DNA of 64,000 nt, taken from contig CM119371.1 in NCBI GenBank assembly GCA_051294905.1, positions 26,662,001 to 26,726,000 of the forward strand, in the 5' to 3' direction. Within the stretch, counting starts at the first letter, position 1; the number at the start of each line of letters is the position of its first letter. Below the pieces are notes generated by a model. That model was not told the origin of the DNA, did not search any database, and saw nothing but the letters and a program-made list of their open reading frames with translations. Made by a program: the position numbers and the translations under genes. Source of the stretch: Botryllus schlosseri. Its lineage: Eukaryota. Positions 2,667-64,000 of the stretch are shown here, piece after piece.

Positions 2667-2744
2667 TTAATAGCAATAATAATGAGATAATAATTAATAG
2701 CAATAATAATGAGATAATAATTAATAGCAATAATAATGAGATAA
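2667..2744. repeat. 27-bp tandem repeat, ~3 copies
   Basis: TTAATAGCAATAATAATGAGATAATAA x3; it produces the YYLIIIAIN repeat in ORF 2648-3034. Confidence 0.95.
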
Positions 2745-16620: not shown

Positions 16621-17293
16621 ACATACCACTGCGCTAACTTTCAGAATTGTTAAGTATAGTACTCGCACTTTGTGAGAATACCCAAGGAGGTTTTTTTGCC
16701 TACATGCACCAAATACTCTCAAGTCCTTATGATATTGGAGTACATCAACTTCATGATAGCTAGAGTATTGAACAGAAATGGACCTAGAGTACTAACGTTT
16801 TACTTACTCGGAAATGACTACTTCTACCTTATTTTAAAGGATACCTCGTTCGAAGCGAAATTTATGTGGTTTTGGATAATATCCAAGATGTAGGCTCACT
16901 TTGAAGGGTACTTCCTAAAACTCAAATATTGCGCAAAAGTACAATTAGGGATCTAAAAGTAACTAATATAGATGGTTATTTCCGTAGATAACTTACCCTC
17001 TACTCAAGAGGTTTTTCAGGTGGAACTACCTACTTTTAGGACTGTTTATGTCAAAGTAGTTTGAGCTTACGTTTATATCACCTTGACAAGTGACATTATC
17101 AGACATGAAAATGATATTATCACGTAATACCAGAAGTTAACACACGTCAATGTGTTTCGGAATTCACGAGAAATTGCTTACTAAGAGAAGTATATTCTTG
17201 TGTACACAATAGCGGAGAGAATATTTAAAATGTAGTAAGCAGGCCGATGGGTATTCATTGAGTTGTATAAGCATAAAAAACATTCCCGCGCGC

Positions 17294-17332
17294 GTCTTAG
17301 GATTAGGTGGTAGGGTTAGGCAGGGTTTAGGA
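17294..17332 (+). other. 39-nt palindrome spacer (hairpin loop) of degenerate telomere-like repeats
   Basis: GTCTTAGGATTAGGTGGTAGGGTTAGGCAGGGTTTAGGA, between CCCGCGCGC and GCGCGCGGG. Confidence 0.9.
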
Positions 17333-29320: not shown

Positions 29321-30819
29321 CTAATGATGCAAATTAGCACCACTTCCCATTTTCAACTTTGCCTAGAAGAATAACACATTATTGATCGATATTACTTCTG
29401 GCTATGTGATTGATGGTGTATAGAATCCTATACATATTTTTACAAACGAATATACTCACCAAATCCTTCGACCGCGGAGCAACAAAGAACTTGGGTCCAA
29501 TGACTTCACTCAGACATGCCCATGCAATAAGCAACGTCCGGGACACCCACCTTCCACTCCAAACACTCCATTTTAAAAGGCGCCAAAGGGAAGTTCGGAA
29601 TGTGTACTTTCTGCGACGGCCGTCGTGGTCGTGTCAAGTATGCGCGAAGTCAGTACAAAATGATTTAATGCGGTATGTACTGAATTTGTTATGCTAGTCC
29701 ACAAAGGGAGTGATTTTACGACTTACTGATGCATAGGAAAAAATGTGACTTAACTGACTTTACATGGCACTAAGGAAAGTGTAAGCAGGAGTTGAATAGG
29801 TTTGCGTTTCGTTGGAACTGTTTGGGAATTCTGGATTTAATAGCCTTGATAGACGTTATTAATTTACTTTAGTGGGGTATGCATGTACCTTGAATAATAT
29901 CAAAGACCAAGAGGACCTGGTTAGGCTACTACTAGGCTACTGTATCGCCAAGGCGTCATTATGATAACATCCATGCATTTAGTATAATTATATGACTCCA
30001 GAAAGTTACTTGTATATGTTTGTATGCATATTCTTATTTGATTGCTGACGCAGAGTCCAAGTCCACACTGGAATACTTTCTCTCAAAATGGAGTTATCAC
30101 ATTGTTGAACGTCATCAAGATATATTTCGTTATAATCATGAACTGCTGGAAGACTCATAGTAGCTAAAGATTGTGACGTAGCACAAGCGCCGCTGTATGG
30201 TGCTGATTGAAAGGGCATCGTGCAACTATGTGGTAGCATGAAAAACAGTCATGCAACAAAGTGCGCAAAGAGGGATTTCACTTGTTGACTTCCACAACAA
30301 CATGATTCCAGGGATTGTGGGCCTATGCCTTATTTTGACATTCGTCAGGTATGGATTTAAAATCTACATGTCAAGGTGGGAGAAAATCAGTTGCGGCTCG
30401 TCCTATAGGGCAACTGGGGCATCGCCCTACCTAAAATTCTGTTCAATAACAATTTAACCATTTATAGACGCACAGCAATCAATATATACCGAGATCACAG
30501 CGAAACCTGCGTTCTTATTGTGCTTTCGCTTGCAAATGCCCATACATAGCGAAGTCTCTGCGAAAATCGAATTCTCTTTCTGTGTTTACGCTTTGTGAAT
30601 GCCTAGCCGGGGCTTGCCCCGGTAGCGCTCATAACAAGCTTTCACTATCTATTCTCTCAAAGCCGCGCACAATAAAGAAACGGTGATTTACTCTCTCCTA
30701 TTCGTAAAATGGACGAGCAAGTGGGGCAACTATGCCTGTTTGCCCCTACGGTGTGATGTAACAATCGCATCTATATCAGTTACCGTAATATGCGTTGAGT
30801 CGACCTTTGCTGCTATAGG

Positions 30820-33800
30820 TCGATTTTGACGGTGTTTCGCACCATGATAATTCTTGAAACTTGGTATGATATGTTGTGAAGGTAGTATTTAGCACTGCTC
30901 CAAGTTTCAGGCTTGCTACTTAAAGATAAGGGTAGTAATTTCGTTTCCGAAGTTCAGTGTGTGCGGATCTATCATGTACTGTACATTGTACAGCAAACAG
31001 ATTTTACTCAAAAGCCGGTATTGGTCTCCATTGATTTTGACGATGTTCCATACCGAGATCGGTCGTGACATTTGGCACGGTAAGTCTTAATGTTAGTATC
31101 AACCGCTGTAACAAGTTTTAAGTTTGTCACTGAACTATGTGGGTGGTAATTTCGTCTCCAAAATCGAGTGAGAGGTGATTCTTCATTTATCGCTAACGGA
31201 TTTACGCAAAAACCGTTATTGATCTCTATTGATTTTAACGATGTTCCATACCTAGATCTGTCATGAGCTTTTGCACGGTAGGTCTTGATTTTAGTATCGA
31301 ACGCGGTGCCAAGTCTTAAAGTTGACAATCAATGATTGAGGCAGTTATTTCGTTTTCGAGGTCGAGTATGGTAGAGATGCGCGCTGATATGATACTTAGC
31401 AGACATGGGGTAATCGCGATTAGTAATCGTAATCGATTACGACGATTACAGCATTTTCAAGTAATCGTAATCGTAATCGATTACATTCGAAAAAATTCCG
31501 AAGTAATCGTAATCGTAATCGACTACTTCGCATATTTAATCGATTTCTTTGTGAAAGAACGATTACTTTTTATTTGTACGACGACTGTGACATAAACTGA
31601 ACATTCGTTAACAAGCAAGAGATAAAATACCAGTTATTGAGTCACAAACGTCTGATTTTCAAATGCCATCGCTCATTATTACGTCAGAAGTAGCCTATCA
31701 GCTTTGGTAGTCTTTGCGAAAGAAGTATCCACATTCCACACTCCTAGTAAATAGATATTCGATGTACATTAGTGTGATTGTAAAACACCCACCGTTCAGT
31801 ATATCGGGTTATCAGTACATTTCAGACGCCATTACCTCGCTGCAGGATAATCAATGACCTCTCTGCCTAGTTTACAATAGCAACATTTATATTGATGTTT
31901 GGTTATGATAAGTTAAACGAAATTTGACCGTTGCTGCTTGGCGAGCAGTAGGCCTATGTGCTGGTACGAACGTACACCAGACAAAAGTTTGAAATTTTGT
32001 ACTCGTCAAATAAAATATTACGGTTTCCACAACGAAGCATTAAAAATCAACAGCTGCTGATATATATATATCATAACCGCGCCGTTTTTGCCGTTTCTCG
32101 TAATGGCAGCTTGCATTACATTATCTGTATTAAGTTGAAGGCAGAATTTTATTTTCACCTTCTCTTATTCTCATAATATTCTACTCAAAACGGGCGTCAA
32201 TTGCTATTTCACGATTCTTTACTGAAGATTTGGACCTGCCGCCATAGCCATCGGCTTATATACCATGTTAGCGTGGGTTGTAGCTAGAATCAGGATCAAA
32301 ACAGCAAAATGATCCTCCACTCCAAACGTTGGTCTTGGGCCCCAAAGGGTAGTTAATTTTTAACTTGAAGATTTAATTTCGTCAATACCATTGGTAATTT
32401 CATTATATTGCATTTTTAATCCTATTTCAGCCCCCGATGGTCAGACTTACCTGAAGAGCAGGGGGCGCGTAATCCATAATTATAACATCGGGTATCTTGC
32501 AATAATTACTGTAGTGCATGTTGTTAATTCGTGACCTCCGGTCTGTTATATAGTCAAAAGATATTGTAGTGGCCCAAACTTAGCAGACTAAAAGAAAAAC
32601 TTCCCTGAGACACACACACAAATTGTCATGTCTAATGCTCTGTGGGTGCCTGCGTGGCATTTGCATCGTAGGCTCAGATTGGAAGGACAGGACTGTTAGT
32701 CTAGCCCACCCAGCGCGGCTATTGACAATGGACACATACCCCAAATTTCGGCTAACGTCTTTCTTTGATAGCACACTTCGTAGAGTCGCATGTTGGCCGA
32801 AACTGCATATGTCTTTTGGTGTTTCGAGGCGCGGTATTGACTGGCAGCAAAATGCCTATTACTATGAGTTATGCATCCTTTATTTCTTGAGGGGAGACAT
32901 TTGCCTTTCGAATCCAAGCTATCTAGAGACATTTAAATGGCAAAGCTCAAAGAGAATTTTCAAGTTAAAGAAATCTGTCAAGAATACTCTATAATTTATG
33001 TTGGTTCACGAAATACTTTGAGTCCCCACGCTATTGGGGAATTTGGGGTGCAGCAGTTATGGACCTGGCAAGAATGCAAATCATTGGGTGCGATAAATCG
33101 TCGTTTATAAAATAGGAAATATGTATATTATGACGTAACAAGCAAATATCGCATCTGTTTCAAAGAAAGGCCTTTTCAGCGCAATCCATGTATTGTCTTC
33201 GATATAACTACTAAGATGCAAAATAAATGTAATCGTGAGTAATCGTGATTACTTTTCCAATGTAATCGTAATCGACTACTTCCTGATTTTGCTGTAATCG
33301 TAATCGTAATCGTAATCGCGGGATTCCGAAGTAATCGTAATCGCAATCGATTACATTCATGAAGTAATCACCCCATGTCTGATACTTAGCCTACCGACAT
33401 CATTGCGGATCTCACGCAAAAGCCGGTGTCTGTCTATGCTAATCTAGTCGGCGTTCCATAACGAGATCGGTGATGATATTCCCAATGGTATATCTCGATT
33501 ATCGCATGAAACAGCTAACTAAGATTCTCGGTTAGCATTCAAATATTCACATAATTTCATGTCCGCCAATGTCCATTTCACTGTGAAATTGTGGCCTTCA
33601 AACCATTTGCTTACAATCCCCTGTCAAACGCGATAGCTATTTCATTTTCGATGTCGGCTAACAGCTGATCATTCGATCAGCCTATTCCTCGATCTATTTT
33701 ACTCAAAGTTCGGCGTTCGTCTGTTTGTATTGATTTTGACAGTGTATCATGCCGGAGTGGGTTATAAGATTGCGAATGCTACTTCTCGATGATTTCATGT

Positions 33801-39800: not shown

Positions 39801-39907
39801 AAGTGACTTTTTATGCTCATGTTTGTTCCAAGTTTTCGTTATGCACATACGAATTTTCGGACCAACTGTTTGTAGTTGGGTGCTTTGTGATCAGCTAAAA
39901 AGTAAAT

Positions 39908-40372
39908 GCGCATGTGGTGTATACAACCAAACCACTTCTGCCAAACTTCCGAAAGGATGTACTTCCTGCTTTAAATACAAGTAACGTCGTCTACGAATTT
40001 AAGTGCCACTGTGATAGTAGGTATGTGGGACGTACATCACAAAGATTGTTTGGACGGATAACGCAACACATTCCCAAATTGATTCGCTCAAAAACTTGCG
40101 CAAATGACCGTACGGAGTTCGCACGACAATGCAAATCAGCCGCCAAAACCGACTGTTACGACGATTACCAAGCATACGCTTCGGCAATTGGCCAACATTT
40201 AAGTGAGAACCCTTCTTGTGCTTAAAACTATAATGACCAAATGTTTACTGTCATTGCGCGAGGCAGATCCTTGTTTCATTTGAAAGCCCTAGAATCCAAC
40301 AATCATCCATTTTACCAAGCCTATTTTATGTAGACAAAAAGATTTTCTGTATAACTTACAAATTTCCCATTA
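39908..40372 (+). pseudogene. Penelope-like retroelement 3' end, GIY-YIG endonuclease domain
   Basis: KDVLP...SNVVYEFKCHCDSRYVGRTSQRL..RI.QH...SAIGQHL..NPSCA, then past an in-frame stop FTVIARGRSLFHLKALES and, after a frameshift, KPILCRQK. Confidence 0.9.
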
Positions 40373-43300: not shown

Positions 43301-43525
43301 ATATTTCGCTCACTTGCTGTGAATTTAGTCATTTTGATACATCTTGTAACTTAGAAAGTAGATATCTTATGTTAACTGCTAAAAGTAACATAACTGCTCC
43401 TAACGTAAGGAGAGTTATTGAAACCACTTTTAATTGAACTCAAATCCCACGACCGATAATGACAAACGATGAATGTTGAAATGAATATATTCGAATGAGA
43501 GAGAGAGAGAGATAGATATATATAA

Positions 43526-43767
43526 TATTCTTTTTCGCCTGCACCATCGAGATGCTTTGGCGACGGAGTTGCGATACGGCCCCATGAGGTCATCTAATCT
43601 GCGCCCCCGTTTTTTTCTCCTCCATGCTATCCGTGATTGCTGAGCGCCTAGCAGGATAGCTGCGGATATCAATTTTCGAGTCTTTGGTATGACCCGGCCG
43701 GGGATCGTACCCACGACCTACCGCTCGAGAAGCCGGACGCATAACCATTACACTATCTCCCTCGGTC
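43526..43767 (-). mobile_element. tRNA-derived SINE (Nin-domain-like), near full length
   Basis: Minus strand: A-box-like TAGTGTAATGG, B-box-like GGTACGATCCC, then GGCCGGGTCATACCAAAGAC...GGCGCTCAGCA. Simple-repeat tail. A second copy lies at 44548. Confidence 0.8.
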
Positions 43768-44547
43768 GCTATCTCGCTCGCTCGGAATGAACGACGTAAC
43801 AAATGAATGTCCCAGATGCAGCAAATAAGGTTAGTCGAGGAATTAGGTTTCAAAATAGTGGTCGCCTGCGGTTATGGAAGACAAGCGTAAACAATAGAAA
43901 CACGTGTCAGTAAGTAGAGACCACATAGGACACAAAAAACAACTACCAACGTACCAACTCAACGTAGCTAGTACCAACGACTGAACCGAATAAAATAGAG
44001 GCGGCGGCCAATCAACATATATAGAGAACCACAATTGGGCGCCTAATTAATTAGTGATAATTACTACACACTGCAGATTACTGCAGTAACAGAAGCAACA
44101 CCTCAACTAAATCTACTTTTGAAACGACTCATATGATAACGCCTCTCATGATACAAGAGTTGGTGTTAGCAACTTTCAGAAACAATGGGTGTCAGTATGC
44201 TCACTAGATGGCGCAAAAGATCCGCATAGAGCACTGTATTTTCTCCTATAGTTACGAAAATATACGAGTCCCCACATTTCTATGACTCATTGCCCTTCAT
44301 TAAGCTCTATGAATCTTTATCACAGCCTTGAAAGCTGGGGTATCATCAGGCGCGAATTACTTCCACTTTTCTCCAGTACGCAACTAGTCTACAGCGACTC
44401 GTTCACTTACTCAAGTAATTTGATTTGAATACTACTTCTACGTCAGATTTTATTGCTGAAATAGGCTACTGATTTTTGCAATCTTGATATTGTCGAGTGA
44501 AAAGCGTAAAACAATGATCTGTATTCAATATAGAATCTCGAATCAAA

Positions 44548-44759
44548 CTTCTCGATCGGTAGGTCGTGGGTTCGGTCCCCGGCCGGGTCATACCGAATAC
44601 TCGAAAATTGGTAACCGCAGCTATCCTGCTAGGGCGCTCAGCAATCACGGATAGCATGGAGCAGAAAAAGCCGGGGGTGCAGACTAGATGACCTTACTAT
44701 AAAGGCCGTATCGCATCTCTGTCGTCAAAGCATCTCGATGGTGCAGGCGAAAAAGAATA
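44548..44759 (+). mobile_element. 5'-truncated copy of the same tRNA-derived SINE
   Basis: Reverse-complement match to 43526-43732. Confidence 0.8.
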
Positions 44760-44928
44760 CCATCTCTATCCCTACCATGTCATAGCCACGTGATTTCTAG
44801 TTGTGTTAGTAACGCATTAGGCATGTAACGTGAAAGGAGCATTTCATGCAAAATGATCACACATATTTATTATACTCAATATTTGAAGACTTTTACATAA
44901 TAACATACCTAACCAAACAATAACTTAC

Positions 44929-46570
44929 ATTGCAAAACTTCCAACTCAGTATCGATATCATTTGCAATCTTCTCGGCTTTGTTCAATTCGTCTCCTTTCA
45001 ACATGTCATATTCACTGCAGTATATCAATGATACTTTCTTCAAATTGGACTTTTTGACGAGAGACGAAATGTCATCGACTGAAGTACGACATCCAAAGTA
45101 GAATATGCATCTGATATATTCGATCTGCGGCAGGAGATTATTACTTTTAATATTGTGTATTATAATGATGTTTCTTGCTATTTCTTCAAAGGGATATGAT
45201 TTGTTAGAAAATAATTTGGATCAAGGATGGCCAATCCTTTTGCTATTCACGGCCACATTTCAATCACTCATGTCGCTTATACGGCCGTATTTCAGGACAT
45301 AGTCGTAATGGACTAACTTGGCGCCGAATATCCATGTTAAACTGCCCATATCCAATGCCGGTGAACTCCAGACTACTCTATTTAATGTGAGTGATTTCTG
45401 GGACCCGTTATAGTCTGGCGAGCCGCGAAAATTTTTTTCACATTCGGGAATGAATTTCGTCATTAATATAAGATTATAAGTAGTTTCACATATTACTATG
45501 AAACATTCAATTATGTTTTCCCAGCCCATGCGATCAGATTCACCAGTAGAGGTAATATGGGTGAGTGTTTTCGAACATTTAGGGAAGATCATAAATGATG
45601 ATTGATCTTCGGGTGGGTCAACTGTTATCAGTCACTTTGTTGCATGCTAGCTGTGATTTCTCGCCCAAGCGTACCACAAATCATTTTCTTTCGTGAGGAG
45701 CTCACGATTCCAAGTTAGTATTTCTATAAGGGGGGAATCATTTTCTATGCTGTTCACATATGTGTTGCGGGGCTCACAATGCAAAGGGCGCTTCTATATT
45801 AAAATCACACGAGGCGCGAATAAATTATCCTTATTGATCAATATCGGGAGTCGGTTTGTTAATTGAATATACATGTCGGCGGCCACCAACATATACTAAT
45901 TGAAACATGTGTCGAAAGCTGCACAAATTCCAATCTACGGCCGCAAGTTGCCCATCCCTGCTTTAGATGAACTTATTGATAAGAAGCACGAACTCACCAA
46001 CTGGGATGGATATCTAGGACAAGAAAAATAAGTAAATTCTTGTGAAGGGGACTTGAACTGCACAGGAGAATTCAATAATAAAGCTGTGGGTGGTAGGGAG
46101 AAGTACGTTGCATCTATGCAAATACCACCGAATCATAATTACTACCTTCTTTTGCTTGCAAGCTGCCACAATATTTCTGAATTCATCTTCATCCTCGAAG
46201 CAGAACATTGCATGGATACTGTCAAAAACAGAAATTGCTCTACCGCGGTCCAAAATACTGTTGTAATCCTCGACGGAAATCTGGCCATTCACAGCAATTT
46301 CCAAGACCTCCATCTCAAATGCGAAAGACATAAGTTGGGAATTCTTGAAATAAGATTCGGTAATTTGATTAAAGATAGTTATTCCTGGAAGCTACGATAG
46401 ACGCCGAAAGAATTATCAATTCCTATTTTCGAGATAAAATTATAGTGTAATATATATGCGTTCGAAAACATGCCATGAGGAATCGTACTTGATACTTTTT
46501 CCGGTAAGTTTCAATTACCGACCAATCGATATCTTCTTCCTCCGTGCAATCGAGCAATATCTTGTTTACC
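44929..46570 (-). pseudogene. Possible decayed host-gene exons, product unknown
   Basis: Protein-like segments with splice-like edges: IEYIRCIFYFGCRTSVDDISSLVKKSNLKKVSLIYCSEYDMLKGDELNKAEKIANDIDTELEVLQ|gtaagt; ORF 46014-46331; cag|VNKILLDCTEEEDIDWSVIETYRKKYQ. Confidence 0.35.
45222..45960. mobile_element. hAT-type MITE
   Basis: Imperfect TIRs CAAGGATGGCCAA / TTGCCCATCCCTG; partial TSD ATTTGGAT / CTTTAGAT. Confidence 0.55.
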
Positions 46571-46909
46571 TGAACACAATATTGGTTTCATGAGGTAAGA
46601 TGGCATCATCGTGACGTGATCATGTCTTGAAATCGATGTTCATGTTTTTACAGTATAATAGTGATTTGTTACAATTATTTGATTATACACAATGCATACA
46701 CTGCATTGGTTTTAGTCGCATTCCTGAGCATGATCTCAAATTAGAATCTACCCACGAATATTTTATGTATTCTATAAACATATAATACAAGTAGTGGTGG
46801 TCAAAGTAGTCGTCGTCGATACTCAAGTAGAAGTATTCAAGTACATTTCTACTCACGTAGTATTAGCGATATACAAGTAAGTAAAAAATAAGTACTCCAA
46901 GCCAAGAAT

Positions 46910-48441
46910 TAAAACTAGAGTTACACAGTTTTTCAAAATTAGCTTAGAATTAGAATTAGAGCAACACAGTTTTTTTTACGAATAAGATTGCTATTGGAGC
47001 TATACATTTTTTTTTTCAAATTAGATTAGAATAAGATCTACACATTTTTTTCCAAATAAGATTAGAATAAGATCTACACATTTTTTTTTCCAAATAAAAT
47101 GATAATTGGAGCTATAGAGTTTTTACCAAATAAGATTAGGATTAGAATTGGAGCTACACAGTTTTTTTCTAAATAAGATTAGAATTAGAATTGGAGCTAC
47201 AGTTTTTTTTTTTCTAAATAAGATTAGGATTAGAATTGGAGCTACACAGCTTTTTAAAAATAAGATTAGGAATAGAATTGGAGCTACACAGTTTTTTTCT
47301 AAATAAGATTAGGATTCGAATTGGAGCTACACAATTTTTTAAAAATAAGATTAGGATTAGAATTAGAGCTACACATTTAAAAAAAAATAAGATTAGGATT
47401 AGAATTAGAGCTACACAATTTTTTTTTAAATGAGATAAGGATTAGAATTAGAGCTACACAGTTTTGTTGCAAATAAGATTGGAATTAGAGCTACACATTT
47501 TTTTTCTAAATAAAATTATCATTAGAGCTACGCAGTTTTGTTATTTTTAAATAAGATTAGGATTAGAATTGGAGCTACACAGTTTTTTTCTAAATAAGAT
47601 TATAATCTGAGATACACACTTTTTTTCAAATTAGATTAGAATTAGAGCTATACAGTTTTTTTTTCAAATATGATTAGAATTAGAATTTGAGCTACAAATT
47701 TTTTCCAAATTAGATTGAAATTAGAGTTAGAGCAACAGTTTTTCAAAATTAGATTAGAATTAGAATAGAAGCTACACAGTTTTTTTTTCAATTAGATTAG
47801 GATTGGAATTAGGGTTACACAGGTTTTTACGAATTAGATTAAAATTGGGATTATAGTTATATATACAGATTTTAGAAATTAGATTAGAGTTACAAAGTTT
47901 TTTTAAATTAGATTAGAATTAGAATTAGAGCTACACAGTTTTTTCCAGATTAGAATGAATTAGAATTAGATCTACACAGTTTTTTCCGAATTAGATTAGA
48001 ATTTGGAATAGAGCTACACAGATTTTTACGAAGTAGAATGAAATTAGAATTGCTACACAGTTACACAGTTTTTTCAAATTCGATTGGAATTAGAATAGAA
48101 GTTAGTTCTTTTCAGAATTAGATTAGAATAGAATTAGAGCTACAAAGTTTCTTCCATATTAGATTGGAATTAGAATTTGAGCTCCTCAATTCTTTCCAAA
48201 TTAGACTGAAATTAGAATTACAGATAACGTTATTTTCTAAATTTGATTGGAATTAGAATAGAAGCTACCCATATTTTTTTCAGAATAAGATTAGAATTTG
48301 AATTTAAGGTACAGAGTTTTTTTTTCAAATTAGATTCGAATTAGAGTTATACAGTTTTAAAAAATTACGATGCGTTAGGATTAGAATAAGAGCTACGGTT
48401 TTTTTTCGAATTAGATTAGAATTGGAATTAGTGCTACACAG
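46910..48441. repeat. ~35-45-bp minisatellite, ~1.5 kb
   Basis: Unit approximately AAATAAGATTAGGATTAGAATTGGAGCTACACAGTTTTTTTC, more than 30 variable copies; residual units near 49200-49260. Confidence 0.95.
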
Positions 48442-49549: not shown

Positions 49550-50038
49550 TAGGGCTGGGCAAAATGATTCCAGTACTCAAATCTGAATCGAGTATCAATT
49601 TTAATGATTCGAGTCGAGTAGTAAAACACAATTTTTTCGAGCAGCGAAATTATACTCTCGCCACTGAAAGTGAATTTATCAACGAAAATTATAGTTTCGA
49701 TACTAATTTTCACTATTGAAGCCTTGAAACCATGAATGGTTGGTTCGTAGCATAAGAAACATAAAGTACAAAGTGTGTAGCACATTTCCAAAATCATGAT
49801 CATCCCACAACATTGTCACCAAGTGCAATGAAATCGGTATAGTCGAAAAAATACCAAAGTATCTTTCATGTGATGGAGAACAGGCAATATGTTCTTTGCG
49901 GTCGCCTAATAGGTACACATTTGAACTTTGACATGTTACATTCTGTTATGACGTCATAACGAGGCATTATGGATTACTCGAAGCGCATTACGTTATTAAG
50001 ATTCGAATCACTCAGGAACTTGATCTTGCCCAGGCCAA
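49550..50038. mobile_element. hAT MITE (same family as 55357-55861; fragment at ~10667-10850)
   Basis: TAGGGCTGGGCAA / TTGCCCAGGCCAA; TSD CTTATAAG / CTAATAAG. Confidence 0.8.
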
Positions 50039-50222: not shown

Positions 50223-52374
50223 GGGGTGTTAAAAAAAAAACTTTTTTTTTTCAAATTACATCGGCTGGGTTGTCAAATCATCAGGTTACCTAAAAATCCT
50301 TACACATCAAATTTGACTCAGTTCCAACCGGTAGAAGCCGAGGTCACTCAAATTGAAATTTCGGTCATTTTTGAAATAATAGTATCTACGGTGACCAATT
50401 TTGTCACACCGACATGACCAAAAACCGTGTTTCAGGTATGCCTGAAGTGGCAGGGATGTATTTTCCACTTGTTTTGATCTTGATAAGGACCTATGATGGG
50501 GTTTGGACAGGGTTGTAATGACTCGACTCAAGTCTGACTCGACTCGAGTCAAGTCATTATGTCAAAATACGGAAATGACTCAACCCGACTCGAGTCAATC
50601 TGTCATATGACTCGAGACGCAGACGGCCAAGACCGACATTTCATTGTATTTTCGAAAAATAGTAAAGTATCCACCCTAGTGGGATTTCGTCTATTGGTAC
50701 TTGTACTTGAAAATGTGACCAGAAACCACTAAAAGTGAGGAAAATTAGTATATTATAGATGCGAATCATTCGATATCATCAAACAGAGGTATAAAATGGG
50801 GGTTTAAGAAGATTTTAACTGAAAACTGAGCAGTCAACACAATCACTTCGACTCGACTCGAGTCATAATACTATGACTCGGACTCGACCTTCTTTTCGCT
50901 CACTTGGACTCGGACTTGACTCGGTGGTGAATTGAAAATGACTCGACTTGTGACTCGGTGCCTTGTGACTTGGTTACAACCCCGGGTTTGGATAAAGACA
51001 TCGCCAGTAAACGAAAAATGATATGACACGGATTACCTGAAAATTGGTTCACTTCATTGACATCGAAACGATGTCGAAACGATGGTGAGATAATTTTCAA
51101 ATAGAGTACTTTACACACTGAAATTACTGACCACGTAAAGGAAATGAACTGACAAGAAGGTAAAATACAGGTAAATATATTTCTCAAGTGATAGTAAAGA
51201 AGTATTTTTGTCGGACCAATTTACATTTCACGACATCCATCCCAATTATGCAAGACATACCGATGCCTCTCTGCCTTGATTCAAAGTTTTTACTCATTGC
51301 AAACTCTCCATTCCCAAAATATCCACCACAGAGACGTCAGTTGCATTCCTCAGCAGCTCCGTGTTCGAATATTTCACTGCTACTTGACATTGACTTATCT
51401 AAGGCGTTGAAAATGTTGTAGATTGCAATTCAAAATGGGCTATGCTACTGAATCGTATTTGTGAGTTGAAAAACATTTCTGACACTTCACATAAGCGTTG
51501 ATGCTAAAGCTTTTTATGTGCTTGAAACTTTGCGAAATTCAAGGAAACCAAATGGTAACCCAATGAGCTTATAAAGCATGTTAGTCATTTTCTGCTCTTT
51601 CAATATCACCTGCGCCCCCTTGTCATAGAGAAATAAAAAGCATTGGTGTTTTACCGCGACATAAGGATACAATTAGATGGTAGTTACCGAATATGGAGGA
51701 TGAGATGAAGAGAGGACGACAACTTCTGATAGGAAAAAGATCGGTCACGATGCCCATTAGTCTTATAATTCACCTGAGATATATCACTATAGACGTGCTG
51801 CAGAGCAAATAATAAAATATCATATAATATCAAATTGTATCGTGAAGAAATCTACATTGGACCGACAAAGAATATGGATATTGACTATCACTTGAGAAAT
51901 ATATTTACCCACATTTGGCGTGCTTATTGTCAGTTCATGTCCTTTTCGTGGTCGTTAATTTCAGTGTGTAAAGTACCCTATTTGAAAATTATCCCACCAT
52001 CGTTCTAAGGTGTCGATTTCAATGAAGTGGATCAATTTCCAGGTAATCCGTGCCATATCTTTTGTTTTCGTTTACTGGCGATGTCTTCATCCAAACCCCA
52101 CCATAGGCCTTTCTCAAGATCAAAACAAGTAGAAAATACAGCCCTGACACTACAGGCATACCTGGAACACGATTTATGGTCATTTCGGAGTGACGAAATT
52201 GGTCACCTTGAATACTAACATTTCAAAAATGACTGAAATTTCAATTTGAGTGACTACGGCTTCTACTGGTTGGAGTTGAGTCAAATTTGGTGTGCAACGC
52301 TTTTTTTAGGTTACCTCGCGATTTGACAACAAAACCGATAAAATTTGAAAAAAAAAGTTTTTTTTTAACAACCC
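50223..52374. mobile_element. Foldback (MULE-like) element with ~520-bp TIRs
   Basis: GGGGTGTTAAAAAAA / TTTTTTAACAACCC. Flanking direct repeat TATTGGAGAC at 50212-50221 and 52375-52384. Arms ~50223-51230 (interrupted) and ~51855-52374. Related termini at ~48445, ~54641-55201 and ~56405. Confidence 0.75.
50508..50984. mobile_element. hAT MITE with GACTC repeats, nested in the foldback left TIR
   Basis: CAGGGTTGTAA / TTACAACCCCG. 8-bp TSD GGTTTGGA at 50500-50507 and 50985-50992. The empty site is present in the opposite TIR (~52090). Confidence 0.88.
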
Positions 52375-55356
52375 TATTGGAGACGCAAGATGAGGAGTCA
52401 TTGACAACACAATTTTGAATTGAAAAATCCGTCTTAATGAATTGCGCATCCTATATTTACTAAAAATATCAAATCAAATACCGTATTTAATATGTCTTTC
52501 TCAATAAAAATAGTAAAACTTGAAATTCCGAAACACCATATCAACCTTACTTGAATTGCAACAGAAAGTCATTCCGTGCAGATCTGAAAAGAAATAGCGC
52601 ATATGCAGACGAAACACCTTGAATTATGCTTGATTCAGGCGCGCACAAGAAATCGTTCTATTCCCGATATCTGGTATATGGTTAGACCATGATTACTTGA
52701 CCACCTACTTGCGGATAAAGTATGGATCAAAGTAGAAGAAGAAAAAAATAAAGAATCGGCTAACTATGATTCAATGTTCAAGTTTGAAGCCAACTTTAAA
52801 CTGTATATTTATGAGAATAAAAATATCAGTAACTGACCCTGTTCAATCTGCAATCTGACAACTGCCGCAAGTCATCCTGCCTGACCAACAGTTGTCGCTG
52901 TTCGTCAAATTTGATAAATTTTGCCTCGAAAAGTATCCCGAGAAATCCAATGTCGGCTAGATGGTTAACCAGGTCGAAAGACAGAGTAGATTTCTGTGAA
53001 AACATTGTCAGTTACTACATCACAACCGACGGACAAATCATTCTCAGAGATACGATCAATCATGAGAGAACATTTTTACTACATAATATAACCACTGCGA
53101 GCAAGATAATGTGGCCTCGTTAACAGAATGTAGCTTGCCAAACGAGTGATCTGAAAATGTGCACATGAACTACCCAACCAATACATGAACTATATATACT
53201 GAGAATTTCATGGAAATATATCAACTCCCTCCATATCTATTCTGCCCGAAGTGTCACGAAAATCTTTAAGCTGACGACTCACAAAATATGACAAAATACA
53301 AGTAGAAGTAGACCGGCGGAAAACTTGATCTACTTGAGTGAGTACGGCAAGTAGAGGTAAATACTCGAGTACTTGGGAAAAAGTAGAAGAAGTTCCTCCT
53401 CTGGATTTGAAATGATAGAATACTCCCAACCAACCTTTCCTTGTGTCGCACGGTTATTTAAATTTAGTAAAGTCGACTAAAGTTTGATAAAAGGTGATTG
53501 GAATTGAGTGAAAGAAATATTCGATTCTTAATCGCCCTCTCTCCGGTATGACCTGATGATGATACCGTCAAGTTCTGCTTACGCCATAATAACGCTCATA
53601 ATTATGTCATAAGCTACAGCCTGGCTACACTGCACCGTGAATCCATTGCTGTATGTTATTATTGTGTTGCTCTACAGCTTTGTAGTGAAATCGGTGAAAT
53701 AAACAAAGATCCGATCATCAGCATGAACCCGTCAAATATAAAATAATAAATTTTATTTTGCCCGCGGCTCTGGAACCCCCCAAAATCAGCGCGAATTTCG
53801 CATTGTGATGGAGTTTGGCATTGTGACACACCAATGCTGCCTGGCTCTTGCTCCTGAGCTGCAGTATCGTTTTGTCAGATAGCATTGTTGCGTCACAATG
53901 TCAAACTACAACGCAATGTAAAATACGAGGCTGATTTTAGGGGCGTTCCAGTGCCATGGGTGAAATAAAATGTATATTTTCGTAATCGGTACAGCAGTAA
54001 ATTTCCATTGGTACACGTTTTATCTAATTTCCCACTCTGCAAGTCGGTCAAAATTGACCTTAGATAGCCTTTGGTCAAATGGAAAGTATGACCCAACCTA
54101 AATGCAGTGAGTCGTTCAATCTCACTGTGTTCACACCATATATAGGTCGCTATGGTAAAATAAACAAAGATCTGATCATTAGTAATGATTTCATCAGATC
54201 AACCTTGATGTTAAAGTCACCGCTAACATAGCCAGTTATCTGGATGATATCTTCTCCGTTCGTCAATTCAACATCTCCATCAGCTAGAGTCCGCATGACA
54301 ACCTGAAAATTGTTCAGAAACTCGAGTATTCCATCATCCGAAAAATATTGTGACGTCATATCAGACATACAGTGATGACAATAGCATCGAAAACATCACC
54401 GACACCGCGATACACTGACTTAGCGAAAGAAATCGTGGAAAATTCTGCGTAATAAGCCAAAATTCACACTGGTTGATATAGTTGACTTGAAACTGTACTG
54501 TAAGTACCGCAAAGGGTATTCCAGCATTTACACTAATTCACGAGACATTTTTGAGGGATTTTCGTCTTTATAATCGGCGCGCGAAATTGAACAATTTGTC
54601 ATTGTGAGCATGTTAATTAATTAATTATATATACTATATAAGGGTAGTTCAAAAGTAACTATTTTTCGGATCCCCGGGATTCACTGATTATATTGTTAGG
54701 TTGCCTAAAAAACGCTGCCCGCTAAATTTCGCTCAATTCCTACCAGTAGAGGCCAACACACAGCGAGTTGAAATTTATTATTTTTAATAACAATTACTGT
54801 AATCCTCATGAAATTGTTGAGTTGTCTACGAAAACGATGCGAAACAAATTTGACGTAACTCCAACCCATAGAAGCCAAGTTATTTGAGTTTTTCATTAAT
54901 AATTTTCGGTTTTCCCACCGACAATGCTATTTTTGCAAATTTAAAACTTTCAACTGCAATAACTTCGCATCTGCCGGTTGGAATGGAGCAAAAATTGTCA
55001 TGATTCGTTCTTTTAGGCAACTTAACAATTTTATAGAGTTGACAGTAAAAGTTGAAAAATTTATTTTCAATTTTTTTATGATAAATTCAAAGTTTCAATT
55101 GGCTCTGCGTCGGATTATACTGGTTGTAATCAAGCCAAATTTGATGTGTAGCGAATATTTAACCAGCCTGACAATTTGATGAGTTATTTTTGAACAATCC
55201 TAATGTCTATATGTGTATTGTATAATATTGTATTCATGTATTATGAGGAGACCTGATATGGCATGATAGTGACTTCTACTATACTGTCACACTGTTATTA
55301 TCGGCAAACAATTTGCAGAGGCGATGTCAGAACTCACTGTGTTGACCTATTACTAT

Positions 55357-55861
55357 TAGGGCCGGGCACAATGATTCGAGTACTCGAATCTGAATCGAGT
55401 ATAAATGTTAATGATTCGAGTCGAGTAGTAAAAGACGATATTTTCGAGTACTGAAATTATACGCTCCTCTCAACTGAAAGCTAATTTACTAGCGCGAATT
55501 ATAGTCTGGATAAAATCTTCCACTGAGAAAGTCTTGAAACCTTGATTGGCTGTGTCGCAGCATACGTGACATAGTGCAAATTTACTAACGTTACTGAAAT
55601 AACTCATTTCCGAAGTCATGATCATCCCAAGAAGTGCAATGAAATCGGTATGGTCGAAGAAATACCAAATAATCTTCAATGTGACGGATAACAGGCAGTA
55701 TATGTTCTTTGTGGTGGCATAAAAAATCCATTTTGGAACTTTGACATAGTGCATTCTGTTGTGACGTCATAGTGAGTGATACTCGAATACTCGACTCGAC
55801 TCGAAGCGTAACACGTGATTCAGAATCGAATCACTCAGGTACTCGATTTTGCCCAGCCCTA
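55357..55861. mobile_element. hAT MITE
   Basis: TAGGGCCGGGCA / TGCCCAGCCCTA; perfect 8-bp TSD ATTACTAT. Confidence 0.9.
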
Positions 55862-58800
55862 ATTACTATTAGATGAGCGCTTCCTTGAGGACTTGAAATC
55901 ATCTTCTGCGTGCTAATTCATGTCTACATGCGAACTCTAGAATTGCCGCGCTCCCAGTAATTTTGCTTGTTACCGAAGGAAGTCTGTGACGAAGTACTTC
56001 TACTTTTTTAAGTACACAAGTCGTTTTCAACTACTTCTAGTACTTATTCAAGTAAAACTAACTGATTCTTTAATTATTGATTATAGTTCTGCTCACCGAA
56101 AATACTATATTATTCAAATCAAAATTTTCGACGGCAATAACTTTGCTTCCACTGGTTGGAATTGAACCAAATTTCTTAACATCATTCCTATAGACAACGT
56201 AACACATTGACGGGGTGAACAGAAAATTTTCAATCTTTTTATCATTTATTTTTATATAATAAACCGAAACACTCTTCTCCTGTAGCAATGCGGCTATTGG
56301 CTGGAATTGAACCAAATTTGGTGTGTAGGCTTAAATTAGGTAACCTAACAACTTTATCAAGTTGTCAGTATGATTTGAGAAAAAAAAGTCATTTTTGAAT
56401 ACCCCTACTGTACAATCCATTTTCACGTTGATCGTGCAGAACGCGTGAGCATGAGCATAGCCATACCTCAATGGTTGTACTGGCAGCCACCCGCAGTTCA
56501 ATTATATTTCCAACAAACCAAGAATATAACCTCGGCGGCAAAGAGGTTTGTTAACTGATATAATTTGATCAACATTATTTCTCAACTCTCATATTCGTCG
56601 TCAGTAACACAGCGTCGTGCTACAACCCTACATTTTACCGGAAGTGCCCGCATGATACCTAACAATCGCAATGCGGATTGCCATGCTTGTAATTCGAAAT
56701 TTTAAACACTAACGTCAATTCCAGAGGAGTTCATTTCTCGCTGATGATTGGGTGGACCATGAGGATTAGAAAACTGCATTGTCATACAGGCGCCGTTAAG
56801 CCTGCTCTTCTCTGCCGTCAATCAACGTATTTTGCAAAACTGAATTCAGTCTTCAAGGCACGCGATCTGTCCGGTTATGTGAATTCGGGGGGCGTATTGA
56901 TTGCGGGCATAACATCAATTTTGATTTTTCAAATGTAGAAACTTCACATCAAGCTCGAATTAGATTACTATTGATCGTTTGCTATAGACTAGAATTATTT
57001 TGCGCATAATTTCAAAATCCGAAGAAATCGCTCGCGGCACACCTGCGAGACATAAATGGTATACTAGTGTGCCGGGGCACACCGGTTGAGAACCACTGGT
57101 CTATGACATCACGGATCATGATGGATAGTAACGTCACAAGTCGCCGCATATCCACATGAAATTACGCCTACATTTGTTCGTAAGAAACTAAATCTTCGAG
57201 TCGAACCCACTTTCCATTCCAGATTTCCAGATAGCGACTCAATCCGACGATGTCCAAGTAATGAACGTAGTGCTGTTGCCGAGAAATTATTGACTGTCAA
57301 ATTCACTTTTTCCACCTGAAACGACGCAAACATACTTTGAAGTTTTCACCAAAACTGAGTTTGAAATTCAGTCTGAAATCAAATCATCAGCGTCGAAATA
57401 CAAAGTAACTGAGCCATAATCTATTCGCTTTACTATTGAGGATCTTTGATGTAGCCTACTTGCAAAGGGATATCTCAAAGGTGGTGATATCAGTGAATAA
57501 AATCTCCATTGCGAGTGTTTGTGACTAATGTAGTGATATCATTCCATTCATTACCATTATATTTGAAATAATTTGAAAATTCACATTCGCTATGTATCTG
57601 AATTCCAAGGATAGGATCCGATTCCATATTTACATAATTGTGCGTGTAAGCCGCAATCCGCAATCCCGTACACATTGAACGATCCAAAAAAATTGGTCAT
57701 ACTGGAGATAACTAGAGAAATTTTGAAAAACATCCATGCGAAATGATGCGTCAGGAGTAGCCTACAGTCATTATGATACAAATATGTGTTCCGAAAATAT
57801 CCAAATGATTCTGCGAAGATCGAAAGTCAATACTTACATTAAAATGATTTTATAAAGATGCCAGTAAGATTATATACAATATGTCTACGACCGAAGATGG
57901 AAAACTAGAGATTCCTGCATGAAATCAAACCAAATACACTCAATTTCATAAAATTCCAGGTCGTAGCACACAAGAACTGAGTAGGCGATAATCGACACTG
58001 TCGTTGATGGATTGCAAGACTATTAATAATACCAGGGGTCAGCAGCGTTCAGCCTGCCAACTGTTTCGCTCACGTTCGGATTCAGTTGCACATGTAAGAA
58101 GTTTGCGAGACACCCAACCTGCTATGTCAGTGATTCTAAAACATTTTAGACTCGCCCCCCTTGACGGCTGTGGAATATTTAGCAGCACTTTATCGCCATA
58201 TCAAAAATTTTGTAAAAAGTGCCACAAGAATACTTGCAATCCAAACGCATAGTCTGGTGGTAGGCCTATATAAGGTTATGACTGTTGAGTTACCTTTAAA
58301 ATATCGAGTTTGGACTATAGACCAGGGGTTGTCAACCTTTTCAGCCAAAGGGCCACAGGAGATTTAAGAACCATCACGCATGCCACTTAAATATTGATGA
58401 CATGTTAGTAGTCGTCCAATAAGAGCGAACCGTATTAGGTAATGGTGAAAACAAGATTTATATTACAACGCATCAAAATCGATAGCAATTATGTCATTAA
58501 AACCCAGCAATAGCCGGGCGAAGCGAGTAATTTTTTCTAGGTTGTGAATAAATTCCGTCAATAATAATGGTACTTGCATTTATTGCTTGTCGCCTCTGTA
58601 TACCGCTGGGCTCATTTGGCAAGGAATGGATTATTCGGGACGTGGACATATCAATATCAAAGATTTTGGCGAACATGCGTCTATCATTTAATGCCAAGTT
58701 TTCATCGCCGACAATCTTTCTGCGAGTGTAGACATGTAGACGGATGTTGGACGACATGTTGTCTCATAATTGTGAATATAGCTAGACTCAACTCTGTAAA

Positions 58801-59204
58801 TTGGGCGTATTAGGAATTTTCAGGAGGGGGTGAGTAGTGTTATTATCGACCTTATAGACCGCCCCTCAGGCTATTTAGAATGTAAACACTCTCATAATAT
58901 AATTTGCGTCGGACTATGCCCGGTTTATGATGTCATCACAGAGGAATTAGGCGACTGCAATGTTTTGTGAATTTCAATACCGATTTTCCATGTGTATTTA
59001 GCAATATGTATTGAATACCTATGCGATTTTGAGCGCTGCGACTTGATAATATCAATCCCTACGCTTCTGATGTATGATTTTTTGTGATAAGGGCCTTGAT
59101 AACATTCAGAGTCTGCAACGATTGTTTGGATATACATTATAGCAATTCCCCACTAAACTATAGGCGGTTATATTACTCTATTGGTCAGAGATAACTCATC
59201 CGTT

Positions 59205-60594
59205 GTCACCATCGAATCCCTCTGGCTATAACTACCCGATAGTATAATTGAGCCAAATACTCGAGTACTAATTTTAAAGTAGCTTAGGTATCTAAATGAA
59301 CCAACGGTCAGTAAACCATTTCGAAGTGCAAGTACAGGAATATCATAGTTCTTGAACCGTGCTCAAATTTTGTAAAGTAGATAGAAAACTACACTATTCC
59401 GATGCAGTAAAGACTCTTACACGCTGGATTTTGTGCAGTATATACTAATTTTACATTGCGGAGTATTCCATAAACGTTAATCCAGTGATCCTCCTTCTAT
59501 TTTCAATCACGATCCGCTTATTATTCTAGGCTTCGAACCCCACACCCAGTACGTTTTATGGGGATTAATATTTTTAGATTAAATATAGCGTATCGAGGCT
59601 TCGTGAAACTTACTCGGAAATAGTTATTTCTACCCTAATTTAATAGATTTCTCAGATATCGTAGCAACGGAACTGGCTTCAGCGAGCGGTTAAGGCGTTG
59701 GACTGAAGTTTCAATGAACAAGTGTTCACATAGGTTCGAATCCCACACCCACTACGTTTACGAGAATTAATATTTTTAGATTCAAATTTAGCGTATTGAG
59801 TACTTTTTCTGCCTTTTTCAGCGCATTAGAGACGTTTACACTATTGATTTCGTGAGCTTTACTTAAGTTTTATAAATTAACGTAAAAGTAGCCATTTCCG
59901 AGTAAGTAAAACGTTCGTATTGTAGGTTCATTTCTGCTTAATACTATAATTATCATGGAGTTGAAGCAGTCCAATATCAAAAACACCCGAAAGTATTTGT
60001 TGCATATAGCTAAAAACCTAATTGAGTACTCTGAAGAAGTACAAGTAGCACAGTTTGTGGTATTTCTATGACATCGAAATTTAGCTAACCAGAACTTATA
60101 CTTGAGTACTCCGAAATGTACAAGTACTTTACCTTTACACGACGTTTCTGTAAAATGAATACTGATTTTATTAAAAAATAAAAAAGCACGAAAAATTACA
60201 TTTTATCCCAAACCATCAGAATACTAAAGTAGCTTATCGCGTATATGGACCTAATACTAAAGTGTTTATGATTTCAGTTCGCTTCAACTTCATGACATTT
60301 TCAGTATTAAACAGAAGTATAGGCCTAGAATGCTAACTTTCTTCGTAAATTGCTACTTCTGCCTTAATTTAACGGATTTATCTGAGATCATTGCTTTACT
60401 TAATCTCTCCAAAATGTGCATTATACTAGTACGTCACCATCGAATCCCTCTGGCTATAACTACCCGATAGTATAATTGAGCCAAATACTCGAGTACTAAT
60501 TTTAAAGTAGCTTAGGTATCTAAATGAACCGACGATCAGTAAACCATTTCGAAGTGCAAGTACAGGAATATCATAGTTCTTGAACCGTGCTCAA
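59205..60594 (+). repeat. ~162-bp direct repeat pair (59205-59366 / 60433-60594)
   Basis: GTCACCATCGAATCCCTCTGG...GAACCGTGCTCAA occurs twice, bracketing the block shared with the first element. Confidence 0.92.
59674..59753 (+). pseudogene. Contiguous tRNA-Leu-like sequence (anticodon position GAA) lacking a pairing 5' acceptor strand
   Basis: TGGCTTCAGCGAGCGGTTAAGGCGTTGGACTGAAGTTTCAATGAACAAGTGTTCACATAGGTTCGAATCCCACACCCACT. Confidence 0.72.
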
Positions 60595-63500
60595 TGCTCA
60601 ATAGACCATTTTTGCTATTTTTCATCGCCATAAGTCATTCTGGACCGTGTAAACGCATTGTACGTTATAGATGAAACTTATGCAAATCGCCGGAACGCAA
60701 CAAGAAAAATCGTATGAATTTGTAAACTACTTATTCATGACATAATAATAATAATTCTACTTGTACACATTTTCACATTTTATAACACTTTAAGTAGTAC
60801 TTGAAAGTTTTGTCAAGTTAACAGGTTAAAAACTTATACTTGAGCACTACGAAATGTACAAGTACTTTACCTTTACACGACGTTTTGTAAAATGAATACT
60901 AATTAAAAAATAAAAAATAAAAAAGACCGAAAAATTACATGTTATCCCGGAACGCAACAAGAAAAATCGTAGGAATTTGTAAACTACTTATTCGGTAAAC
61001 TACTCTTTACTTCACAAAACAAAGTTACAAAAGTAAGCAGATTTATATGAAAACCCGTTAAATAGAAGTAAAAGTAATAACAATGCATCATACCAAATTT
61101 GATCGCAATTTCATGATGCAATACCTTTAAAACTAACGCAGTTCTCTATACACTTTTGCGTAAATCTGTGTTTCGCTAGCGTAGCACGTACCTATACATA
61201 GTAAGCTTCAATAACGGAATTACCATGCTAATAATCAAATCCCCACCCTGAAACTCGGTACGCGGTTGTAGGATATTATGAAAATACAACATACCAAATT
61301 TCATCAGACATTTCATGATGTAACACCTTTAAAACCAACGCAGTTCTATACCGACTTTTGGCTAAATCTGTTATCCATAGCGCAGCACGTACCTATACAT
61401 AGTCAACTTTAAAACGGAATTACCATGTTAATAATCGGCTCCCCACCTTGAAACTCGGTACGCAGTTGTAAGACATTATGACAATGTAGCATGTCAAATT
61501 TTGTTACGCATTTCATGATTGAACAACTTGAAAGCTAACGCAGTTCTATACCGACATTTGCGTGAAACTGTTTTGCGGGAGCTTAGCGCATACCTATGCG
61601 TAGTCAACTTTAATGACGGAATTACAGATGTAATTAGGTTTCAACACTTTTACAACGATTCTTCTTGCTTCCTATAACATCGCACTCGAAGCCCTCGTTA
61701 TTAGGCTATGATCTCAGCCTGAGCTATGTCTTGAAGCCTACGGGACTTTGCAAATTGTTTCGATTTATTCTATACCCGTTTTAATTTAAGGAAGCCCATT
61801 TCACTCAATGTATCGATGCCTACAGTATAGAGTATACTCTACAAAATTTTCTGATTAATTCTCCCTATGTTAATTTACCATAAGACAGACAATTTGACTC
61901 CTAAAGTCCGAAATACTTGTTCGCTTGAGCTAAGCCGCAGCGCCTGGAGTGGAATTTTATAGTTCTTGTAAAAAGTTGTCTATACACAATATATGTTTAA
62001 GGTAAGTCCTACGAATTCATGATTTCGTCCGAGTTTGTATTTTAGTAATATATACTAATACCGCGTTTGTAACTTGTGCAAGTAGGCCTACAGGAATATC
62101 ATAGGTAAAGTCTCTGTCTTGCATTTAGTTGCCGGCTCTGAAAGCAAGCAAAGTTTGTGGTATTTGCGCAACATCGAAATTTGTACACTTCACGCGGGGC
62201 CTACGATACTTACGGCCTAATATGGCACATTACACTTGCTGGATATAAGAGGCCGACACTCCCAACCAGACATCACGACTGACTCAATGATTGCTTGCGA
62301 TCTCACTTCTCGATACCAGACGCCTCGCCATACAAGTCTAATAAAGTATTATAACAGACAAAATTAGTTCTTTCAGATGAAACAACCCAATTAAGAGCCA
62401 AGTGACAGCGTCGCAATGTATTTAATCGTTCGGGTAGACTTGAATCGTGATCCGGATCTCGTAACATAGTAAAATCGAGGTATGTAGTTTAATTACTCAC
62501 TCACTACTCTATATGTTGGTGGTGGTCATACCCTGCAAACTTTTTTGCTGCGAACGTAGTGTTTCACCTTACATCAGTTGGTTCAATGTATGTACCGGGT
62601 TGTGAAAACTGTCGCTGTTTTGACTATGTGTCACAATCAATACTAAATACGAGAATTCGTTACTCGTCGAAACGCCGCAGTCAGACATCGTTAACAGCGA
62701 TTCCGTGTATGGCAATCTTGAGTTCAATTGCGGTTTTGTGATGTTAACCAAGCGGCTGTGTTTCTGCGGTGTGAAGACTGAATTCGTGTTGTTTCCCTGC
62801 AAGAGTGCGATGTCTATTTCACACCTAGAGCAATTATAAAACGCATCTTCGAAACTTTTGGTCTAGTTCATCCGCTTGCATTTCGAAACGGACCATCACG
62901 ACAAGACTCTAACCCACCACATCCGAGGTTTCAGTTGATCATATCGAAGAATATCATGTCCATCCGTGTTACCACCCACATCTTGGTTGAATGGCCGATG
63001 ATAAGCCAAATTTAATAACGGAATTACCATGCTTAACATTGAATCCCAACTCTAAACTTGATACGTAGTTGTAGGACAGTATGGCAATGCACCATGCTAG
63101 ATTTCATCACACATCTAATGATGGAACACCTTTGAAACTATCGCAGTCGAATACCGACTTTTACGCATATCTGTTTTTCGTGAACACAGCATATACCCAT
63201 ACATAGTCAATTTTAATAACAGAATTAGTATGCTAAATATTAAATTCTCACCTTGAACGTTGGTACGCAGTTGTAGGACATAATAAGAATGCACCATACC
63301 AAATTTCGTCAGACATTTCATGATGTAACACCTTTAAAACCAACGCAGTTCTATACAGAATTTTGGCTAAGTCTGTTTTTCCGTAGCGTAGCACGTACCT
63401 ACGCATATAGTCAACTTTAATAACGGAATTATCATGTTAATAATCGACTCCCAACTTTGAAACTCGCTACACCGTTGTAAGACATTATGACAATGCACCA

Positions 63501-64000
63501 TGTCAAATTTTGTTACGCATTTCATGATTGAACAACTTTGAAACTAATCCAGTTCCATGCCGACTTTTACGGGGGCGTAGCACGTACCTATGCATACTCA
63601 ACTTTAATAACGGAATTACCGAGCTTAACATTGAATGCGCAACTTGAAGATTGGTTCACAGGTGTAGGACATTATGACAATGGAACATACCACTGCGCTA
63701 ACTTTCAGAATTGTTAAGTATAGTACTCGCACTTTGTGAGAATACCCATGTAGGTTTTTGCCTACATGCACCAAATACTATCAAGTCCTTATGATATTGG
63801 AGTACATCAACTTCATGATAGCTAGAGTATTGAACAGAAATAGACCTAGAGTACTAACGTTTTACTTACTCGGAAATGTCTACTTCTACCTTATTTTAAA
63901 GGATACCTCGTTCGAAGCGAAATTTATGTGGTTTTGGATAATATCCAATATGTAGGCTCACTTTGAAGGGTACTTCCTAAAACTCAAATATTGCGCAAAA

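Follow-up and report, generated by a model that had tools for sequence, protein, structure and literature searches.

Background

Polinton/Maverick elements encode a retroviral-like integrase and a protein-primed polymerase that includes a terminal-protein domain (PMC11161782), and Mavericks are recognised by (AGT)2//(ACT)2 ends, target site duplications (TSDs) of 6 bp and terminal inverted repeats (TIRs) of 46 to 1,447 bp (PMC8097293). For protein-primed elements, a single-stranded intermediate whose origin is a panhandle has been proposed (PMC4046053), and self-complementary snapback genomes are known in adeno-associated virus (AAV; PMC8235507). Here we analyse 64,000 nt of Botryllus schlosseri DNA (GCA_051294905.1, CM119371.1, positions 26,662,001 to 26,726,000, forward strand), a stretch called the window throughout, which contains a palindromic reference element, E1 (4821-24932), and a second copy, E2, which is visible from 58833 to the window end at 64000 (5,168 nt) and is the main subject of this report. 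We consider it probable that 58833-64000 represents the left part, devoid of genes, of one rearranged copy of a many-copy element with Polinton/Maverick-type ends, a copy that is likely to be a mirror image in its overall structure and likely to be moved by a helper.

Apart from the 64-kb window itself, the evidence draws on contigs of public runs and on scans of sequence collections. Parts of 55001-64000 are contained in 21 of 24 listed runs, and contigs of four of the 24 (X1, X2, X16 and X20) were placed on 58560-59700 only; X1 and X2 derive from one sample and X16 and X20 from two other studies, which gives three samples in total. A contig was counted as bridging a join only if it had at least 31 letters on each side, and summed contig depth is not a copy number.

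The left end of E2

E2 begins with the motif (AGT)2 at 58833-58838 (+), which is of the type described for Mavericks (PMC8097293), directly after the hexamer GGGGTG at 58827-58832 (+), a candidate left TSD whose second copy was not seen. The preliminary description of this locus had reported here a new AGTAGT start with flanks different from those of E1, and both observations hold. AGTAGT or ACTACT sites occur 44 times on the two strands of the window; the one at 58833 is no chance hexamer, because an E1-like block of 67 bp follows it at exactly the spacing found in E1. This subterminal block (58858-58924, +; nt 26-92 of the element, offset 0) is identical to its E1 counterpart at 64 of 67 positions (E 1.6e-23). 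The intervening nt 7-25 (58839-58857, +) agree with E1 in length but not in sequence, with 6 of 19 positions identical. The retention of nt 1-6 and 26-92 together with the replacement of nt 7-25 points to the bases that a helper integrase or polymerase may read. In neither terminus did the outermost 100 nt show better predicted folding than shuffled sequences (z 0.70 each).

The (AGT)2 or (AG)3 motif expected at a Polinton 5' end is found in E2 at 58833, and a 6-bp TSD together with an (ACT)2 3' end and terminal inverted repeats is present in E1, while E2 shows the candidate left hexamer only. We consider it very improbable that this end motif is a coincidence and that the family belongs to the Foldback type and owes its movement to a cut-and-paste transposase with no relation to Polintons. 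The modular arms with their ~200-bp tandem units do resemble those of Tetris (PMC4079207) and Galileo (PMC3573991), but (AGT)2 is kept in both copies although nt 7-25 diverge, E1 has a 6-bp TSD, these two features together forming the Maverick signature (PMC8097293), and the flanks of Galileo measure 7 bp (PMC3573991).

The left flank of E2 (58560-58832) is repeated DNA with a summed depth of ~1,000 to 94,000 in X1, which indicates that E2 inserted into a repeat, and contigs related to this flank mark the boundary of the element. The target hexamers of E1 and E2 (4815-4820 and 58827-58832) each consist of G or C at five of six positions in a window with 38% GC; the chance of this is ~0.03 for each and 0.001 for both together (calculated post hoc, n=2), and a preference for GC-rich targets is possible.

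E1 as the reference palindrome

E1 starts with AGTAGT, ends with ACTACT and is bounded on either side by GGTCGC, a perfect 6-bp TSD at 4815-4820 and 24933-24938. It measures 15.2 kb if a later insertion is discounted, and is made up of two 7.6-kb arms that are 99.87% identical over 7,600 bp (nine substitutions and one indel, the insertion set aside) and of an unpaired centre, a G-rich loop of 39 nt at 17294-17332. The insertion (8177-13048, 4.87 kb) is present in the left arm only, is unrelated to the element and has CACTG...CAGTG ends and a TA duplication; it is presumably EnSpm/CACTA-like. Within it, 8813-9120 resembles 58323-58620 at 77% and 10675-10855 resembles 49558-49738 at 80%. The loop is G-rich on one strand, contains four TTAGG motifs, of which there are 118 on both strands of the whole window, and has what we take to be a telomere-like or G-quadruplex-like appearance; it could be the scar of a healed break or the relic of a longer loop. 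An origin of E1 as an assembly artefact was considered and rejected because of the TSD, the insertion restricted to one arm and the 10 differences private to one arm or the other.

A mosaic of modules shared with E1

Six blocks with at least 95% identity to E1 make up 2,633 of the 5,168 nt of E2, and their offsets relative to the E1 arm are, block by block, 0, 1479, 1677, inverted, 310 and 2071. The subterminal block is followed by a module without counterpart in E1 (58925-59364, +), which is multi-copy in the species according to contigs of X16 and X1, and then by two E1-shared blocks at 59365-60440 (+) that correspond to arm nt 2012-2373 (96.7%) and 2539-3288 (97.3%) and overlap by 33 bp. 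An internal duplication of 162 bp (copy A 59205-59366, +; copy B 60433-60594; 98.8% identity) begins in both copies at one and the same 8-mer, which also closes an E1-shared block. Further inward lies a first tandem array (61075-61628, +) of 2.7 copies of a ~200-bp unit, which is ~80% similar to a second array close to the window end.

At 62430-62922 an inverted block (62430-62862, 97%) is followed by a forward block (62823-62922, 98%), the two overlapping by 40 bp, and this 40-mer occurs twice per arm in E1 as a perfect inverted repeat. The junction of the inverted block through a 40-bp inverted repeat suggests that, in this region, E1 arose by fold-back from an order of modules like that of E2. 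An older inverted pair of ~175 bp (79%) is present in both copies. Internal repeats, including the ~200-bp tandem arrays, amount to 51.5% of E2 and 50.2% of the E1 arm. The junction of the inverted block, the older inverted pair and this share of internal repeats speak for a history of fold-backs.

The last kilobase of the window, which had been described earlier as collinear with 15945-16938, indeed matches the left arm of E1 over a slightly longer distance: 63004-64000 (+), comprising the second, ~204-bp tandem array and pre-centre DNA, is collinear with E1 15937-16938 at 96.6% identity (25 mismatches and four gaps totalling 9 nt). The window end cuts this segment 355 bp short of the point that would match the end of the E1 arm. 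As a control, no BLAST match of E2 at E<1e-3 was found in 24939-58826, the 33.9-kb stretch that separates E1 from E2. A separate tandem repeat of three ~200-bp units lies outside the elements at 30792-31367; over 53 nt it scores 60-64% against the ~200-bp unit of the element (5163-5215/24538-24590), again with no BLAST match at E<1e-3, and a kinship between the two units is unproven.

Coding capacity

In the 5.2 kb of E2 that are visible, stop-free frames reach at most 110 aa and frames starting with ATG at most 70 aa; no frame longer than 110 aa exists in this segment, and E1 has no open reading frame of that size. Pfam matched none of 36 frames of E2 and none of 39 frames of E1, a weak test, and Rfam gave no matches. 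The Polinton gene set (protein-primed polymerase, retroviral-like integrase, ATPase, protease, capsid) was thus found neither in E1 nor in the visible part of E2. One could regard E2 as the left end, non-coding over an unusual length, of a Polinton that carries genes or has decayed, and as the parent type of E1, since the Polinton end motif is present and genes could lie past the window. We regard this as highly unlikely: 5.2 kb pass with no frame above 110 aa, intact vertebrate Mavericks have TIRs of 46 to 1,447 bp and accommodate eight genes in 12.7 to 24.6 kb (PMC8097293), and the same modules run into a hairpin centre in E1.

Arms changing in step

The six shared blocks provide 2,704 aligned columns for a comparison of E2 with both E1 arms, with two short overlaps counted twice and small and duplicate blocks excluded. 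There are 67 sites at which the two E1 arms agree and E2 departs from both; only five sites distinguish one arm from the other, and at each of these E2 agrees with one arm. The two copies, which reside at different sites, are ~2.5% apart, and the ratio of 67 to five differences argues that the arms of E1 were made or equalised after E1 and E2 had split. The persistence of the 4.87-kb insertion and of 10 differences in a single arm makes it probable that the equalisation preceded or coincided with insertion and was not a continuous process in the chromosome.

These numbers also bear on another possibility: E2 could be a palindrome that a Polinton helper moves, with arms that are equalised and reshuffled in the chromosome by gene conversion and ectopic recombination of the host, as proposed for the long TIRs of Galileo, and not while the element replicates. 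In Galileo, lengthening of the TIRs, internal ~210-bp tandem repeats and chimeras have been ascribed to recombination and conversion (PMC3573991), and a chimera of this kind could account for the mosaic of E2 and its altered nt 7-25. However, the insertion and the differences kept in one arm of E1 require conversion to have been slow or absent since the insertion, yet the 67 older changes sit in both arms, and we consider host conversion an unlikely source of the symmetry.

Contig evidence for a family

E1 and E2 had been taken in the preliminary description as members of a family rather than as a one-off event, and this is borne out by the two copies at different sites and by the terminus and first modules, which are found at high depth in contigs of all three samples. 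Multiple dispersed copies are indicated by the two sites in the window and by deep, variant-rich contigs in four of four runs. Summed depth reaches 10^4 to 10^5 across most bins of the element in X1, X2 and X16; the lowest listed contigs of X1 have depths of 6 to 10, and the low-depth contigs of X16 have depths of 44 to 91. A contig of X16 (58869-58957, depth 2,893) bridges the subterminal block and the module absent from E1 with 56 and 33 letters, respectively, which identifies this arrangement of E2 as a repeated subtype. The left junction is covered by an exact contig of X1 (58713-58858, depth 7.9), and an assembly artefact at this junction appears unlikely.

Recurrent loose ends of contigs at 59017, 59021, 59203, 59299 and 59365-59366 in several runs and a 169-bp go-back joint at 59532-59700, likewise in several runs, show further subtypes of the family in which the modules are ordered differently. 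Judged by eye, E1 just past the subterminal block is similar to the loose end at 59017, and a junction of E1 itself is similar to that at 59365. No far-end junction appears among the loose ends listed, an outcome that speaks neither for nor against a mirrored arm.

An exact-pattern scan with the subterminal block retrieved no stretch from viral, metagenome or genome contigs, and a pre-centre pattern retrieved none from metagenome contigs. A match of an 18-mer of the E2 terminus in a viral contig (L001) was dismissed as chance, being internal, not extending and with no BLAST match to the window at E<0.01. Pattern scans of the three collections yielded no related locus, and hence no Polinton that shares these termini and carries genes.

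The predicted mirrored half and its possible origin

If the geometry of E1 is projected onto E2, the arm ends at 64355, the loop occupies 64356-64394, the centre falls at 64,375 and the element of 11,085 bp has its far end at 69,917. The earlier estimate of a centre near 64,375 and a size of ~11 kb is arithmetically reproduced in this way from the arm end of E1 and its 39-nt loop. E1 is no safe ruler for the centre of E2, though, because the offset shifts at every shared block, and these two figures are the weakest part of the earlier interpretation. The size of 11 kb is probably a little short, so that 64,375 and 11 kb are better regarded as lower bounds. We judge it likely that E2 has a mirrored arm beyond the window, and a palindrome that ends in a mirrored terminus followed by GGGGTG is plausible; an exact centre like that of E1, giving the 11.1-kb form, is rather doubtful.

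A helper-dependent, fold-back derivative of a Polinton is the likely identity of E2. A helper Polinton would supply the integrase, which would make the 6-bp duplication, and the protein-primed polymerase. A displaced single strand outside the chromosome could then form one long hairpin whose paired ends would represent a normal origin. Fold-back template switching, or resection of the hairpin followed by self-primed refill, would use one arm to rebuild the other and keep the arms identical; one of the two would be required because plain copying of the strand would leave differences between arms in place. End repair of this type is known in adenovirus. The same switching at short repeats could have shuffled, duplicated and inverted the modules. 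This scheme predicts a mirrored arm past ~64.4 to 65 kb and a total length of 11 to 12.5 kb.

Several points weigh against this reading. The mirrored arm, the far end and the second TSD were not seen, as they would fall past 64000. A helper Polinton is presumed, and the pattern scans retrieved none. The Pfam result is insensitive because all eight frames from outside the element bodies, transposon-like ones included, were equally unmatched (0 of 83 in all). At the left junction, the contig of X1 has 26 letters on the element side and falls below the bar of 31, and three contigs of the flanking repeat (7 to 8 differences each) cease to match a single base ahead of the predicted end of the TSD, at 58831. 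Finally, the 67 versus five differences fit a single fold-back in the line of E1 equally well, so that the symmetry of E2 itself is not deducible from these numbers.

The last point leads to an alternative in which E2 is not palindromic, that is, an ordinary non-autonomous Polinton whose inverted repeats are short and whose body is unique, or a truncated copy, and E1 is the product of a one-off fold-back after the split. Nothing is seen past 64000, E2 is far more distant from the arms of E1 than these are from one another, which is expected from one recent fold-back, and E2 is unlike E1 in structure over half its length. On the other hand, E2 is collinear with E1 to within 355 bp of the E1 arm end, and both copies keep traces of earlier inversions, so we rate a non-palindromic E2 as improbable.

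The helper-dependent fold-back reading can be extended to a more specific one, which we put forward tentatively and with more doubt than confidence: the copies might be inherited, integrated snap-back defective polintovirus genomes, rebuilt from one arm by way of a giant hairpin in every round of replication, with arm modules that the polymerase reshuffles by template switching and with an exchangeable outer cassette of 25 nt that fits different helpers. If so, one body (from nt 26 inward) would be servable by different helper Polintons. Replication of a Polinton as a folded single strand was met only as a hypothesis (PMC4046053), and copies in which both arms change together and modules are inverted or duplicated at short repeats would be natural records of such a folded-strand cycle. 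The pair of E1 and E2 offers a direct measure of it in its 67 shared and five private changes; as a single locus, E2 serves as a divergent outgroup to the family and its value is comparative.

Other features of the window

The remainder of the window contains several other features. A tandem array of ~35 copies of a ~42-bp unit with strong GC skew occupies 46908-48437. Broken reading frames at 27646-28959 (-), two of which had no Pfam match, have the look of what we take to be a decayed piggyBac-type transposase. Short frames at 39899-40225 (+) and 44909-46391 (-), also with no Pfam match, resemble the tail of a Penelope-type endonuclease and pieces of a host-like gene. Two inverted-repeat pairs, at 43515-44770 (87% over 223 bp) and 50223-52374 (85% over 287 bp), are probably older small TIR transposons.

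Comparison with known systems

No description of a palindromic, hairpin or foldback non-autonomous Polinton was found in the literature considered, which includes parts of PMC6431247, 10.1101/2024.01.15.575659 and PMC3014272 and leaves aside supplements, Repbase and subscription journals. With Polinton/Maverick elements, as described in a vertebrate survey (PMC8097293) and for an element of Anolis (PMC3014272), the B. schlosseri copies share the (AGT)2...(ACT)2 motif, of which E2 shows the (AGT)2 end, and the 6-bp TSD, observed in E1 and predicted for E2, and with 15.2 kb E1 falls within the range of 12.7 to 24.6 kb of intact elements (PMC8097293). They differ in that neither E1 nor E2 has a polymerase, integrase or capsid frame in the visible sequence, and in that the 7.6-kb inverted repeat of E1 makes up the whole element and is five times as long as the longest TIR given in PMC8097293 (1,447 bp).

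As in Foldback-like elements, the arms of E1 and the visible part of E2 are long, built of modules and rich in internal tandem repeats. Tetris (PMC4079207) and Galileo (PMC3573991) are similar to them in being non-autonomous and in having long inverted arms, tandem units of ~200 to 220 bp and rearranged or chimeric forms. However, Galileo is a member of the P superfamily, with TIRs of up to ~1.25 kb and 7-bp flanks (PMC3573991), whereas the arms are 5.5 to 7.6 kb long in our elements (the E2 arm as projected) and combined with Polinton-type ends and, in E1, a 6-bp TSD. The cut-and-paste signature of Galileo (P superfamily, 7-bp flanks) is therefore absent, the duplication of E1 being 6 bp and its ends of Maverick type.

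The snapback genomes of AAV resemble the proposed form of these elements in being self-complementary and helper-dependent, with one terminal part mirrored with or without a loop, but they exist inside particles as free, single-stranded genomes of a parvovirus (PMC8235507). E1 and E2, in contrast, are integrated, inherited, multi-copy and double-stranded, exceed 10 kb (E2 as projected) and show no viral genes in their body; their likeness to AAV snapback genomes is thus one of form only.

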